This document shows positions 290 through 58,306 of a DNA stretch of 64,000 nucleotides, piece by piece. The stretch is taken from the NCBI GenBank assembly GCA_047602405.1, contig JASGHJ010000001.1, positions 1,408,001 to 1,472,000 of the forward strand. Direction: 5' to 3'. The notes beneath the pieces were generated by a model that had not been told where the DNA came from, ran no database searches, and saw only the letters and a list, made by a program, of their open reading frames with translations. Source of the stretch: Anaeromyxobacteraceae bacterium. Its GTDB lineage: Bacteria; Myxococcota; Myxococcia; Myxococcales; Anaeromyxobacteraceae. Within the stretch, counting starts at the first letter, position 1; every line of letters starts with the position of its first letter. The position numbers were made by a program, and so were the translations under genes.

Positions 290-494
290 CGGGGAGGAGT
301 AGGAACGCCGACTGTAGAACGGAAGCCCGCGGCGCGCCACGGGTTGCCCCGGCGTCCGTGGCGCCAGCCGCGGCAGCCACGGCCGGGTGCCGGACACGAG
401 GGGGCCGGTGCCGGACACACCCGAGGAGCCCCGTCCCGCCCGGTCCGGCCGCAAACGGGCGGAGCCCGCGGGAGCGGGGTAAGCTCGCCCCCGA

Positions 495-2051
495 ATGGAA
501 CCGGTCGCTCAGAACGTGGAGAGCCCGGCCCCGGCCCCCGGGAGCCAGGCGGGCGCCCGCCCGAGGGCCGACACGCGCCTGCACCGCAGGGTCGCGCTCG
601 TGACCGCCGGCGTGCTCGCCGTCGCGGTCTCGGCGGTGACCCTCTCCTCGTACCTCAGCATGCGCGACCAGCTCCTCGGCGCGCTCCAGCAGAAGGCCAC
701 CGCGCTCGTCGACGGCGGCGCCATCGCCCTCTCCTCCGACGCCATCCTCACGAAGGTCCGCGCGCAATCCTGGTGCGATCAGCTCGGCGACCGCGAGTGG
801 GACCTCGCCTACGTGCTCGTGCGCGACCCCGCGGGCCGCGTCATCGCGTCGGTCTCCTCGCCGGGGTTCGAGACCGAGCGCGAGCGCGACGAGACCACCC
901 ACACCCGCGGCCTCATCCCCGAGCCGGTCGGCGGGTCCATCGAGCTCGGCCTCGACCGCAAGACGACGCTCTCCCGCGCCCGCTCCACGCTCTGGGACGC
1001 CATCCAGATCGGGGTGGTGCTGCTCGTCGTCTTCGCCGCCTTCGGCGGGTGGGCGACGCTCTCGCTCATCGGCCGCGTCGGCAAGGTCGCCGAGACGGCC
1101 TCGCTGCTCGCGCGCGGCGACCTGCGCGTCGTGCCCCAGGTCCAGGGCGACGACGAGATCGGCTCGCTCGGCCGCAGCATGGAGGAGCTCGTGCAGGGCC
1201 TCCGCCGGACGGTCGGCGACCTGCAGGGCGCGTCGGAGGCGATCGGCCGCCAGGCGCTCGCGGTCGCCGAGACCGCCGCGGCGCAGCTCGGCTTCACCCG
1301 CGAGCAGGCCAGCGCCCTCGACCGCGCGAGCGCGCAGGTGCGCGAGGTCTCCCAGGCCTCCCGCCAGGCGGCGGAGTCCGCCCGCTACGTGATCGACGTC
1401 GCCGATCGCTCCGAGACGCTCTGGAAGGACGGCGGGGCCGCGGTGCAGGAGGGGCTCCTCGGCCTGAAGGAGCTCGACGGCCGGGTCGCCGACATCGCGC
1501 TCGCGGTGACCGAGCTCTCCGAGCGCATGGTCGAGATCGCGGGCACCGTCTCCACGCTGCGCGACCTCGCCGAGCAGACGAACGTGCTCGCGCTCAACGC
1601 CTCCATCGAGGCCTCCAAGGTCGGCGAGGAGGGCAAGGGCTTCGCGGTCGTGGCGGGCGAGATGCGCAAGCTCGCGGAGCGCTCGCGGCGCTCGGCCGAG
1701 GAGGTGCGCGGCGCGCTCGCCGAGCTGCAGCGCTCGACGCGCCAGGTGGTGACGGCGACCCAGGGCGGCTCGGAGCGCGCCCGGAGCGCGGTCGCCGGCG
1801 CCGAGCGCGCCGAGTCGACCATCTCGGCGCTCGCGACCGCGCTCGAGGACACCTCGAAGGCCGCCCGCGGCATCGCCGACGTGAGCCGCCGGCAGGCCGA
1901 CGAGATGGACCGGATCGCGGGCTCCGGCGAGGAGCTCCGCACGAAGATGTCGCAGACGCTCGACGGCGCCGAGCGCCTCAAGCACACCGCCGGCGACATG
2001 ACCCGCGTGGCCTCGCGCCTCGCCTCGCTCGTCGCGGCGTACCGCCGCTAG
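495..2051 (+). CDS. Methyl-accepting chemotaxis protein
   Basis: Two TM segments, HAMP (DDEIGSLGRSM), MCP signalling hairpin LAEQTNVLALNASIEA...GKGFAVVAGEMRKLAERS. Confidence 0.95.
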   Translation: MEPVAQNVESPAPAPGSQAGARPRADTRLHRRVALVTAGVLAVAVSAVTLSSYLSMRDQLLGALQQKATALVDGGAIALSSDAILTKVRAQSWCDQLGDREWDLAYVLVRDPAGRVIASVSSPGFETERERDETTHTRGLIPEPVGGSIELGLDRKTTLSRARSTLWDAIQIGVVLLVVFAAFGGWATLSLIGRVGKVAETASLLARGDLRVVPQVQGDDEIGSLGRSMEELVQGLRRTVGDLQGASEAIGRQALAVAETAAAQLGFTREQASALDRASAQVREVSQASRQAAESARYVIDVADRSETLWKDGGAAVQEGLLGLKELDGRVADIALAVTELSERMVEIAGTVSTLRDLAEQTNVLALNASIEASKVGEEGKGFAVVAGEMRKLAERSRRSAEEVRGALAELQRSTRQVVTATQGGSERARSAVAGAERAESTISALATALEDTSKAARGIADVSRRQADEMDRIAGSGEELRTKMSQTLDGAERLKHTAGDMTRVASRLASLVAAYRR

Positions 2052-2052
2052 C

Positions 2053-3870
2053 TCAGCGCGACACCCGCCGCAGCGACGCCGGGAGCAGCCGGGCCGCCCC
2101 GTCGCGCGGCTCGTCGCCGGGCCGGGCGCCCGCGGTGAACTCCGGGCGGGGCCTCCCGGGCGGCTCCACGACGAGGCCCGCGGCGCGCGGGGCGCCGCCG
2201 CCGTGGCCGGGCGCGCTCGCCTCGACCGCCTCGATGCCGACGCGCCCCTCCCGCCACAGCAGGCGGTCGCAGCGGTGCAGGAGCTCCGCGAGCCCGTCGT
2301 GCGTCGAGGCCGAGACCCCGACGCCGCCGTGCCGGTCGGCGAGCGCGGCGCCCTCGCCGGGCGGGAGCCGGTCGGTCTTGTTGAAGACGAGGAGGCGCTG
2401 CTTCCCCTCGAGCCCGAGGTCCCGGAGGATCCGCTCCACCGCCGCGATCTGGTCCTCGTGGCGCGGGTCGGACGCGTCGACGACGTGCAGGAGCAGGTCG
2501 GCGTCGTCGAGCTCCTCGAGCGTCGCGCGAAACGCGTTCACGAGGTCGGGCGGCAGGTCGCGGATGAAGCCCACGGTGTCGGTGACGATCACCTCGCGGT
2601 CGCGCGGGAAGCGCAGCCGGCGGCTCGTCGGGTCGAGGGTCGCGAAGAGGACGTCCTCGGCGAGCACCTCGGAGTCGGTGAGCGCGTTGAGGAGCGTCGA
2701 CTTGCCGGCGTTCGTGTAGCCGACGATCGACAGCACCGGGAGCCCGCGCACGTTGCGCTGCCGGCGGCGGAGCTGCCGGTCGCCGGTGAGCGCCTCGATG
2801 CGCCGCTCGAGCGCCGTGATCCGGTCGCGGACGCGGCGGCGGTCGATCTCGAGCTTCGTCTCGCCGGGGCCGCGCCCGCCGATGCCGCCGGCGAGGCGGG
2901 AGAGCGAGTCGTCGCGCCCGACGAGGCGCGGGTAGAGGTACCTGAGCTGGGCGAGCTCGACCTGGAGCTTGCCGTCCGCGCTCTGCGCCCGCTGGGCGAA
3001 GATGTCGAGGATGAGCTGGGTGCGGTCGAGGATCTTGAGGCTGGTCGCCTCGGCGATGTGGCGCGCCTGCGATGGGCTGAGCTCGGCGTCGAAGACGATG
3101 ACGGTCGCCATCCGCTGCATCGACCGGAGCACGATGTCCTCGAGCTTGCCCTTGCCGATGAGGTAGCGCGGGTCGATCTCGCGGCGCAGCTGGAGGGTCG
3201 CGTCCATCACCTCGACGCCCGCGGTGCGGGCGAGCTCGCGGAGCTCCGCGAGCGAGGCCTCGGCCTCGGCGCGGCCGCGCTGGCCGCCGAAGCCGACGAG
3301 GATCGCGCGCTCGCGGCCGCTCGTCCGCCGCACGGCGCGGGCGCGGGCGAACTCCTCCTCGAGCGCGAGCGCGCCGGAGGTGGCGTCGTAGAAGAGCTCG
3401 TGGACGCTCGGCGCCTGCTCGTCCTTCCACATCGCGCCCTGCGCGTTCTCCGGGAGGAGGTGCGCGTAGTCGACGCGGCCCGGCAGCCCGTCCTCGCCGA
3501 CCTGGATCGCCGCGACGAGGTCGAGGCGCAGGAGCGCGAGGTCGGTGTGGTCATCGCGCGTGAGCGGCTCGCCGTGCAGGTGCGTGTGCACGAGCCTGAG
3601 GCCGCGCAGGCGGCTCTCGCCGGCGCGGGCGCGGCCGACGTCCGGCAGCTCGAGCTTGCGGGCGTCGCCGACGATGACCGCCTGGACGTCGCCCTTGCGG
3701 TCGAGCAGCACGCCGACCTGCCGGTTGGTCTCGCGGGAGATCTCGGTGAGGTGCCGGGCCAGCTCCGGCGACACCACGTCCTGCGGCTCGACGCGGCGGC
3801 GGTAGGTGCGGCGGAGGGCGTGAAGCTGGCTCGCCTTGAGGCCCAGGGTGTTCCCGAAGACTTCTTGCAT
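2053..3870 (-). CDS. hflX: GTPase HflX with extended N-terminal domain
   Basis: [38 protein letters not shown] motifs. Confidence 0.95.
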
Positions 3871-3958
3871 GTTCCTCCAGGGCCAAGTCTAGCCACGCCC
3901 GGCGCCGGGATCGAGCGGAACGGCGGCCGCCCGTCGGGCCCGCGTGTCCGGCACCGGG

Positions 3959-58180: not shown

Positions 58181-58193
58181 CGGGGGATCCACC

Positions 58194-58235
58194 ACGGGGC
58201 GGGGCGGTCCACCGGGCCGTCCCGCCCCGTCTTTT
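58194..58235 (+). terminator. Intrinsic terminator after the peptidase
   Basis: ACGGGGCGGGGCGGTCC/GGGCCGTCCCGCCCCGT stem (with G-U pairs) followed by CTTTT. Confidence 0.7.
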
Positions 58236-58240
58236 CTGGG

Positions 58241-58306
58241 GATCTTCGGGTGCCGGACACGCACGGCCCGCGTGTCCGGCACCCGAAGATCGTGCGTGTC
58301 CGGCAC
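58241..58306. repeat. Inverted doublet of the 11-mer (22-bp perfect arms, 7-nt loop) plus a third copy
   Basis: GATCTTCGGGTGCCGGACACGC acggccc GCGTGTCCGGCACCCGAAGATC; extra copy at 58296. Confidence 0.92.

Follow-up and report, generated by a model that had tools for sequence, protein, structure and literature searches.

The question raised by this locus is why one short word should recur so often within a single stretch of a chromosome, inside protein genes as well as between them. The window (the whole stretch of DNA analysed, 64 kb long) contains 34 exact copies of GTGTCCGGCAC, which is GTGCCGGACAC when it is read inward as an element end. These copies form a dense cloud core at 387..58306, with 20 on the forward strand and 14 on the reverse, and an earlier note on this DNA was correct in its count of 34, in reporting both strands and in placing the copies in intergenic and coding DNA alike.

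Abundance and localisation of the motif

The chance expectation for exact copies in the window, obtained from 100 dinucleotide shuffles, is 0.01. When up to one mismatch is allowed, 47 sites are found against 2.7 expected; 13 of them are one-mismatch sites, including the four variants that the note had singled out (5965, 6243, 14420 and 43036). The whole source genome (G000) has 144 exact copies. Its zero-order expectation is 9.5, in agreement with the rough estimate of about 0.1 copy per window made earlier, and Markov models of orders 1 to 6 predict 3-12 copies per genome. The 53 called genes of the window hold 13 copies against a mean of 0.12 and a maximum of 3 in 200 codon shuffles; the counts are far above both of the nulls that had been proposed as checks. 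The base after the motif is C or G in 144/144 genome copies, and no conservation is seen around them beyond 13 nt. The 11-mer is absent from the 40 commonest 11-mers of the genome, and the odd-palindrome family GTGNCNGNCAC was rejected as the enriched unit because no other member is enriched in the core.

The claim of hyper-abundance holds for the window but not as a genome-wide signal. There are 42 copies in a 75-kb core (18 of them inside called genes and the remainder outside), 75 in a 1.3-Mb halo and 27 in the remaining 4.8 Mb, that is, 560, 57 and 6 per Mb, a fall of about 100-fold with distance from a Y1 transposase gene. In a 50-kb scan, the cloud around this gene is the only dispersed local 10-mer cloud in the genome, and the core contains 42 perfect copies versus just 11 one-mismatch variants. 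The copies have no leading or lagging strand bias (strand counts 11/14, 27/28 and 18/19). No dispersed clouds were found at the other 10 Y1-like genes of G000, short arrays being present near two or three of them. A rearrangement behind the sharp drop past window position 58306 was ruled out, since the outgroups G006 and G003 are collinear in gene order. An assembly artefact, the alternative raised in the note, is contradicted by a separately assembled, 91%-identical relative (G026), which holds 178 copies, 52 sites in aligned stretches being common to both genomes. At the mirror position on the other arm (0.66-0.71 Mb) there are 6 copies, partly common to G026 and too few for a claim.

The Y1 gene and its relatives

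The gene at the centre of the cloud (12870..13547, forward strand) encodes a Y1/HUH tyrosine transposase of 225 aa with H62-P-H64, Y123-x-x-x-NP and an SS motif. Its matches to Pfam Y1_Tnp (E 6e-4) and to NCBIfam REP_Tyr_transpos (NF047646; E 2e-18, 66.5 bits, cut-off 80) are both under the cut-off. H62, H64, Y123, N127 and P128 are invariant in 28/28 homologues, and the HuH motif, Y-x-x-x-NP and the Y1 core fold together correspond to TnpA-Y1 class 2 (RAYT-like). S143 and S144 are also invariant among homologues, an SS motif past the catalytic tyrosine being a criterion of subclass 2.1 (Table 1, PMC6006769). The predicted model (pLDDT 90.7) ends in two helices and has TnpA-REP 4er8 as its best fold match, which is also the best by profile. 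The dN/dS against G026 is 0.17 (codons 1-186), and the gene is evidently under purifying selection.

About 105 nt upstream of the start there is a bulged GC hairpin (12730..12766, forward strand; folding z -4.5 for 12720-12800), and a similar sequence, judged by eye, occupies the same place in L012, L013, L014, L016, L028, L043 and L049; it is a candidate subterminal recognition structure or left-end remnant. At 12786..12796 (forward strand), 84 nt before the gene, a motif copy points the other way from a usual left end; it is degenerate at this place in G026. There is no right-end array downstream, and the window copy of the element is without either canonical end. Just upstream of the hairpin lies an IS4-family element unrelated to the motif (11281..12723, reverse strand; Pfam Nterm_IS4 and DDE_Tnp_1). 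Its direct repeat, 10 bp long, is found at 11271 and 12724; the element is absent in G026 and has four further copies in G000. The gap that holds the Y1 gene also holds a metallo-beta-lactamase-fold gene (10489..11277, forward strand) with two coding copies, at 10540 as VPDT and at 10796 as GAGH in rare codons. The flanking genes abut in G006 and G001, and therefore 10476-13598 is missing there; G006 and G003 are without the Y1 gene at this place.

The note had proposed a survey of relatives for co-occurrence with the RAYT clade, and the motif does follow the gene between genomes. Of the 92 family genomes, copy numbers above 20 occur in only 5, each of which has a Y1 homologue, and the 53 genomes without a homologue have at most 13; the genomes are related and do not count as independent. 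Copies near the Y1 gene are 42 of 57 in G031, 32 of 43 in G033 and, for the ACG variant, 14 of 19 in G062. At 40 homologue loci the median count of the core 8-mer is 19 per 20 kb, compared with 2 at 60 control loci, where it never exceeds 7; of the 40, 31 surpass that control maximum and 9 lack a core excess, including all four G027 loci. A single-protein scan of contigs had yielded only 2 loci.

The conserved part at the 40 homologue loci is TCCGGCAC, preceded in homologues by ACG-, ATG-, GAC-, ACC-, TCC- or CTG-, and the variant changes with the Y1 lineage within one family. Homologue loci thus carry non-palindromic variants, so that the palindrome of the 11-mer, a key feature in the note, is incidental. 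As a marker of enzyme lineage the prefix fails, because ACG and GAC follow clades but GTG is found in separate branches. Other lineages have their own variant in core genes, with four copies in a recF-like gene of G050. Inverted end arrays are present on the left at 31, on the right at 20 and on both sides at 17 of 39 loci. In two-ended elements the motif constitutes stuttered terminal inverted repeats, and stuttered ends are also found beside multi-copy elements. In the explanation preferred here, a TIRtron-like element with its Y1 gene at 12870-13547 has the 11-mer as terminal repeat.

Copies in genes and arrays

Eight of the nine testable coding copies, those in recF-like, tatC and LysE genes among them, overwrite host codons without a gap, and the motif peptide is encoded in none of the outgroups; for five coding copies of the window the outgroups have no orthologue, and with two outgroups whose protein identity is 55-75% stepwise change is permitted. 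In an ABC permease gene (7792..7802, reverse strand) the sequence is ELVSGTF where both outgroups have ELVVGTF, and in an ABC ATPase gene (8334..8344, forward strand) VPDT replaces four codons relative to two outgroups, both without gaps. The copy in a LysE-family gene (14312..14322, reverse strand) gives RVPDT where 12/12 outgroups have Q[VL]P[AS]G, again gap-free; a pair 18 nt apart in the variable linker of LysE (14402..14430, forward strand) has a second copy that is decayed here and intact in G026. A one-mismatch copy in a glutamate-kinase (proB-like) gene (16174..16184, reverse strand) reads VPDI, gap-free, the P position being H, R or S in 15/15 outgroups. Further copies are found in a dehydrogenase (19899..19909, reverse strand; RAGH, with rare codons CGT and GGA), in a beta-lactamase-family ORF absent from the gene calls (23536..23546, reverse strand; VPDT), in the RsgA GTPase gene (46941..46951, reverse strand; VSGT) and in an ECF sigma factor gene (48461..48471, forward strand; VPDT). 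In the core and halo, the exact motif accounts for 22/22 VPDT cases, against 27% by codon usage.

Some copies are insertions of 12-24 nt. At a dehydrogenase ORF start (19391..19425, reverse strand) two copies 24 nt apart form an 8-residue duplication, with a third unit in G026, and an intergenic array of four copies (23173..23249, forward strand) has spacings of 21, 21 and 24 nt. One pair 21 nt apart sits gap-free over non-motif sequence. In the three-copy array at 58250..58306, the 13-nt spacer of copies 2 and 3 equals the joined flanks of the inverted copy 1 (13/13; unique best donor). Plain duplication of a motif-centred unit is true for few tandem copies and gives no general rule, just 4 of the 38 tandem spacers showing a closer match to their own flanks than to those of 95% of other copies. 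There is no signal of patch replacement of flanks, identity being flat with distance from isolated copies; neighbour-to-neighbour flank copying is not seen beyond 60 nt; and among dispersed copies the sharing of flank sequence does not depend on distance, therefore no donor can be traced.

Between G000 and G026, 253/253 coding motif bases are identical and 19/19 in-frame copies are intact (branch-corrected p 0.006), and in intergenic DNA conservation is 94% versus 86%. Two gains in G026 could be polarised by outgroups, one of them made by two synonymous substitutions that lead to codons of about 2% usage. Twenty outgroup loci together contain a single motif copy. The strong conservation between G000 and G026 is compatible with selection as well as with re-correction.

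Explanations for the copies and comparison with known systems

The observations to be joined are inverted motif flanks, gene-centred density, relatives without gene or cloud, same-length codon replacement and near-invariance between two strains. The note had proposed that an active process writes or selects the motif; this holds, and of its three candidates the data point to an HUH nuclease. It is rather probable that the Y1 enzyme converts near-matches close to its own gene and re-corrects them, and host sequence has been replaced letter for letter, even in protein genes, probably because the enzyme writes the motif there. TnpA-REP carries out cleavage at a distance and strand transfer in vitro (PMC3333891). 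By analogy with its HUH chemistry, the Y1 protein would bind the end motif on single-stranded DNA, cut at or near it and hold one end as a phosphotyrosine link, and the held end would then be rejoined to a reachable site of partial match, or would prime repair there. The outcome would be a same-length patch of 11-13 nt or a duplication of 12-25 nt. Frameshifting products would be purged by host selection, leaving intergenic, in-frame and tolerated copies, and drifted copies would be re-corrected by the enzyme. The density gradient around the gene suggests a cis preference. Each perfect copy may act as a new donor, which would account for the 21-25 nt spacing and for a slow spread into the megabase halo.

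A wider reading, held tentatively, would make the stranded Y1 nuclease a cis-limited natural sequence editor, with same-length conversion of partial matches to an 11-13 nt site, upkeep by re-correction and recoding of nearby host proteins. The minimal site would then be a word that propagates itself, which would make it the smallest non-autonomous replicator of the family, and the halo through the origin to the other arm would be a fossil map of protein reach in the folded chromosome. If writing by the enzyme is true, it would supply a concrete and testable origin for the over-representation of short words, for example of HIP1, the source of which is unsettled. It would in addition mean mutation directed to a place, with host proteins near one gene pushed to VPDT or VSGT regardless of function, and in other lineages toward VPDV or GAGG. 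The patching of near-matches without indels by an enzyme of 225 aa would represent interesting DNA-editing chemistry. The gene and its site are already identified, as are natural pairs of before and after states.

The main rival of enzyme writing, which we regard as unlikely, is a domesticated DNA-binding Y1 protein, with sites that ordinary mutation creates and selection retains as a useful binding cloud near the gene, as argued for HIP1, whose conservation has been interpreted as selection (PMC5861425). Purifying selection on the Y1 gene, its single fixed locus across most of one genus (g4), the perfect conservation of coding copies and the higher intergenic conservation all agree with it. 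However, clouds and arrays arise at unrelated loci wherever the gene lands, gains call for several changes at once, for altered residues or for rare codons, and the stuttered ends beside multi-copy elements resemble processing errors.

It is still less probable that the whole element has repeatedly inserted and excised nearby, or inserted abortively, and that the copies are its one-time, unmaintained footprints. In favour of this, the motif corresponds to the element end, the family is a mobile one (up to 5 hits per genome), some copies represent 12-24 nt insertions, and loci missing one end have more dispersed clusters (median 9.5 vs 4, p 0.03, the loci being non-independent). Passive marks should decay, yet the core is dominated by perfect copies and none of the 19 in-frame copies is lost in G026; moreover, copies hold only 11-13 nt of the end, and four two-ended loci have large clouds.

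Chromosome proteins may bind dispersed sites, parS and the RacA ram sites being the comparison for binding in an origin domain. A binding site of this kind, with the Y1 gene incidental, is very improbable and largely refuted. The halo (0.57-1.94 Mb) takes in dnaA at 1.062 Mb, is denser on the origin side and crosses dnaA, and linear diffusion gives no account of either; G048 and G050 also have a cloud at dnaA. On the other hand, the peak is on the Y1 gene, 360 kb from dnaA, and the collinear 400 kb from at or near dnaA has 2 copies in G006 and 0 in G003 versus 78 in G000. The cloud of G062 is on a contig other than that of dnaA, and in G048 and G050 the Y1 gene itself adjoins dnaA. Origin anchoring is rejected for the peak, though it may bear on the halo.

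Uptake-signal drive and methylation-directed repair around CCGG, the other candidates of the note, are hardly credible despite a weak genome-wide excess (27 copies outside the halo, where the exact motif accounts for 9/15 VPDT cases) and the fact that uptake sequences too reshape host peptides (PMC2817400), because the motif is local to one gene and follows it between genomes, its variant tracking the Y1 lineage, whereas both processes would act genome-wide, and because C5 cytosine methylases (PF00145, the one methylase family covered by the search) were not found in G000, G026 or G062, one being present in G003.

Among known systems, IS200/IS605 elements share the HUH-Y1 fold and, in candidate form, a subterminal hairpin upstream, but they have Y-x-x-x-Q where this protein has Y-x-x-x-NP (YVDRNP), and here there is no adjoining tnpB, the ends are inverted and their lagging-strand preference has no counterpart. 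HIP1 of cyanobacteria and DNA uptake sequences are likewise short words in coding and non-coding DNA, conserved past background and altering host peptides; both are genome-wide, unlike the steep gradient found here, and the available texts describe no tie to a neighbouring transposase gene or mobile-element end. A cognate cytosine methylase belongs to the HIP1 picture, and the PF00145 search gave none in G000, G026 or G062. REPs are hairpins of 20-40 nt with a GTAG or CGTC tag, mostly extragenic and often in doublets, the intragenic ones being described as insertions (PMC3733652). The REP/BIME/REPIN systems with TnpA-REP (RAYT groups 2 and 3) have the same fold, a single gene with its cognate repeat, local array amplification and some intragenic copies. 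This motif differs from them in its short conserved length (up to 13 nt), its non-palindromic homologue variants, the lack of a conserved hairpin or tag, the overwriting of codons, the many genic core copies and the concentration near the gene.

The closest system is the TIRtron/TIRYT (Di Nocera 2013, PMC3733652), which Quentin 2018 (PMC6006769) equates with TnpA-Y1 subclass 2.1 and which is Group 1 RAYT in PMC5581495. The note did not recognise the motif as an element described in this lineage; the element type is described, and it is its behaviour that was not found in the literature search. No published description of clustering and same-length host recoding by a Y1 end motif was found, and the TIRtron texts available describe no gene-centred concentration, same-length host recoding or maintenance. 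No REP substrate or function is reported for TIRYT-type Y1 proteins in those texts, and enzyme writing, if true, would be their first visible activity. The differences are an end unit of just 11-13 nt, stuttered, and several features of the protein. A C-terminal helix-turn-helix is present in all 20 subclass-2.1 TIRYTs (PMC6006769), whereas here no match was found by Pfam, which finds only Y1_Tnp, or by model search, proteins being of about 220 aa throughout the clade; in place of the NH[VYF]H context and the W[EQ]/FQ motif of the subclass, the clade reads THPH and GQVVMERL. The likeness, at family level, lies in a RAYT-like Y1 gene between inverted terminal repeats without REP hairpins, in repeats found elsewhere as singles, dimers or clusters, and in the Y-x-x-x-NP and SS motifs. 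GGGGWSAS occurs in the terminal repeat of most, not all, described members; GGTGCCGG fits it at 4 of 8 positions, within a graded end series across homologues (GGGGACAGA, GGGGACGGA, GGTGACGGA, GGTGCCGGA). In homologues at about 35% identity the ends read GGGGACGGA and GGGGACAGA, of which GGGGACAGA fits GGGGWSAS, and the GGGGACRGA carried by distant homologues links the motif to the published TIRtron/TIRYT end.

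A local motif cloud around a Y1 transposase gene

The 11-mer GTGTCCGGCAC occurs as 34 exact copies in the window, the number counted in the earlier note, where 0.01 are expected, and at 13 one-mismatch sites, which include all four variants named there. In the genome under study (G000; 6.16 Mb, 74% GC, contigs C1 and C2) there are 144 copies against the 3-12 expected under Markov orders 0-6, and 53 called window genes contain 13 copies against 0.12 in a codon-shuffled null. The flanking logo is sharp (next base C, 83%, or G; previous base C, 80%), with no conservation further out than these single bases.

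This abundance is real, but local rather than genome-wide: within limits set after the map of copies had been seen, density is 560 per Mb in the core (C1:1.395-1.470 Mb), 57 per Mb in the halo (0.56-1.95 Mb) and 6 per Mb in the remaining genome. The peak coincides with a Y1 transposase-like gene (12870-13547, + strand), to which the cloud is tied. A scan of all 50-kb windows of G000 for dispersed local 10-mers detected a single cloud, at this gene; the 10 other Y1-like genes lack one. Also enriched in G000 is a second variant, GTGCCGGACGA, whose densities per Mb are 80 in the core, 21 in the halo and 9 in the rest. Five copies at C2:2,313,421-2,315,354, spaced at 276-nt multiples within a repeated protein domain, are background outside the cloud. 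Of two Y1 genes of a different clade, that at C2:3,486,341 has its own short repeat ACTCTGGGAC on either side, and that at C2:3,727,193 a 6-copy ACGACTCTCGGTC array 5.3 kb away.

Gene order over 1.04-1.61 Mb of G000 is collinear in the relatives G006 and G003, and a 400 kb collinear stretch holds 78 copies in G000, 2 in G006 and 0 in G003. The genes bordering the lactamase-fold gene, IS4 and the Y1 gene directly adjoin in G006 and G001, which therefore lack the Y1 gene at the corresponding place. The IS4-family element (11281-12723), with four more near-identical copies in G000, may alter Y1 gene expression; the close relative G026, without it, has more lineage-specific motif copies.

In G000 dnaA is located at 1.062 Mb. 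On the terminus side of the Y1 gene, density falls sharply more than 45 kb away; at 200-360 kb the origin-side halo has about 88 clusters per Mb versus 19 on the other side, a bias common to G026. Beyond the window (C1:0.57-1.94 Mb) the halo leans to the origin side, extending across the origin, and is lighter on the terminus side; 6 copies at C1:0.66-0.71 Mb lie close to where the Y1 gene would fall if its position were mirrored at dnaA. Both could reflect arm-to-arm contact, the counts being small.

Same-length recoding and conservation of copies

By the calls of a simple gene finder, which overlooked at least one gene, intergenic DNA makes up about 17% of the genome but holds 24 of the 42 core copies. 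Outgroup alignment was possible for nine exact coding copies; five coding copies in the window had no outgroup orthologue. No outgroup encodes the motif peptide at these nine, and eight are gap-free replacements, the remaining one lying in a variable linker. QVPAG became RVPDT in LysE (12 outgroups), VVGT became VSGT in an ABC permease and FFGT became VSGT in tatC, while the C-terminus of a recF-like gene was overwritten by a copy. Across 7 sites tested, 7 of 16 outgroup-agreed residues are changed, versus 14.5% background (p 0.005). The frequency of VPDT is 45-fold higher in the core than beyond the halo, and all 22 core and halo cases use the exact motif codons (27% expected). Other lineages carry coding copies of their own variant: in genus g4 these encode VPDV, HVRH and TSGT, and the recF-like gene of G050 contains four, with G000 as sole comparator at 36-75% identity. 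Host sequence is recoded by the motif at the same length.

G026, classed in the same genus, is about 91% identical to G000 over about 390 kb fetched. Aligned sites comprise 52 common to both, 24 in G026 only and 9 in G000 only, some of the latter two groups being alignment shifts within arrays. Coding motif bases are identical at 253/253 positions (background 92.7%), and 19/19 in-frame copies are intact in G026 down to their synonymous positions (branch-corrected p 0.006). In intergenic DNA the motif bases are 94% identical, versus 86%. Two G026 gains were polarised by outgroups. One, in tamB, turned A-T into V-S; the other took two synonymous substitutions, to the codons CGT (1.7% usage) and GGA (2.0%). 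G000 has one loss, at 14420. At C1:1.1319 Mb, where no outgroup aligned, G026 has two perfect copies 21 nt apart, gap-free over non-motif sequence; 12-24 nt insertions also occur among copy differences. Same-direction neighbours are spaced at 21-25 nt in 29 of 38 cases (13 at exactly 24). Similarity of a spacer to its own flanks is limited to 4 of the 38, and one spacer exactly reproduces the two flanks of an inverted neighbour joined together. No strand bias of copies was found. Copies are near-invariant, and their presence depends on the position of the Y1 gene.

The motif as an element end across genomes

A Y1 homologue is present in 39 of 92 family genomes. The motif follows the gene: all five genomes with more than 20 exact copies (144, 178, 57, 43 and 24) carry the homologue and the 53 without it have at most 13 each, although such counts are not independent tests because the genomes are kin. 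In G031, 42 of 57 copies fall inside 20-kb loci around its two Y1 genes, and in G033 32 of 43 inside 30 kb. Forty loci fetched around homologue matches, long contigs being favoured, have a conserved core TCCGGCAC, prefixed by GTG, ACG, ATG, GAC, ACC, TCC or CTG. Its median is 19 per 20 kb there versus 2 (maximum 7) at 60 controls; 31 loci exceed this maximum and nine, including four from G027, show no such excess. The Y1 gene of G062 has 14 of the genome's 19 ACG-type copies no more than 9 kb away, with dnaA on another contig. For the ACC type in G048 the figure is 17 of 37 inside 50 kb, a case confounded by dnaA, which lies 5 kb from the gene. In genus g3 (L018 from G048, L040 from G050) the homologue adjoins dnaA, and its motif variant sits in yidC and further origin genes as well as in the recF-like gene, which has 4 copies.

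Read inward, the 11-mer is GTGCCGGA-NNN. An upstream end directed at the gene and within 400 nt of it occurs at 31 of 39 full-length loci, a downstream inverted end 850-1100 nt off at 20, and both at 17; ends are often stuttered, variable-length end fragments alternating with flank fragments. The 11-mer is an element end. Across loci, the association tested between a lost end and dispersed copies is weak. Fifteen loci from other families were taken in: those of f12 (~35% identity) have GGGGACGGA and GGGGACAGA, likewise arranged as inverted ends and also present as dispersed copies, and two further loci carry GTGCCGGGCAC, which links the 11-mer to the TIRtron ends GGGGWSAS (PMC3733652, in part). 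Around f12 homologues (L139, L140, L141) there are dispersed GGGGACGGAGT clouds at positions common between genomes. L025 (G082) has a duplicated 5' gene fragment ahead of the full Y1 copy, and its upstream end is GTGACGGACA, not GTGCCGGACA. At the f6 homologues L137 (G255) and L132 (G225), other words (CAGCGACTC, AGAGTCCCG) are repeated in arrays with a 21-nt period, the L137 array starting where the gene match stops (residue 133).

Neither canonical end is left at the window's own Y1 copy, which has kept a hairpin at 12730-12766. In its protein the HuH and Y motifs are intact and the predicted fold resembles that of TnpA-REP; the gene is under purifying selection (dN/dS 0.17). Inside it, CCGGCAC at 13303-13309 (codons for HRHY), recurring at +434/437 in many homologues, is probably protein-driven.

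Origin of the copies and known systems

TnpA-REP binds REP in single-stranded form; its cleavage takes place at a distance and with little specificity, and it recombined substrates in vitro. The authors of that work proposed excision-integration and primer-extension models (PMC3333891, in part). By analogy, the Y1 enzyme would apply such chemistry to the 11-13 nt end, yielding patches or short duplications that host selection would then filter. That the enzyme itself writes the copies is the favoured reading, held with some reserve; the 21-25 nt spacing, the fall beyond 45 kb and the origin-side halo are unaccounted for by it. Binding-site selection, which would keep the copies, seems unlikely, and it is rather less probable that they are passive footprints. 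An origin-domain site is very improbable. Regarding the active process that the earlier note proposed as writing or selecting the motif, its HUH nuclease is preferred, but uptake or methylation has the slightest chance of all.

The Y1 protein belongs to class-2 Y1 and is filed as related to TIRYT, not as a member, because it lacks the HuH context and HTH tail of subclass 2.1 (compared with PMC6006769, PMC3733652 and PMC5581495, each in part). In the literature searched, with most subscription papers outside reach, there is no account of same-length recoding or of a gene of this kind surrounded by a motif cloud. 'Anaeromyxobacter' was not found in the main text of PMC6006769 or PMC3733652, whose figures or supplements (TIR lists, alignments) may list a member of this clade. 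HIP1 (PMC5861425, in part) was also compared. The Y1 element behaves like a TIRtron, the spread of the motif resembles that of REPs, and its effect on proteins resembles their marking by uptake sequences (PMC2817400, in part).
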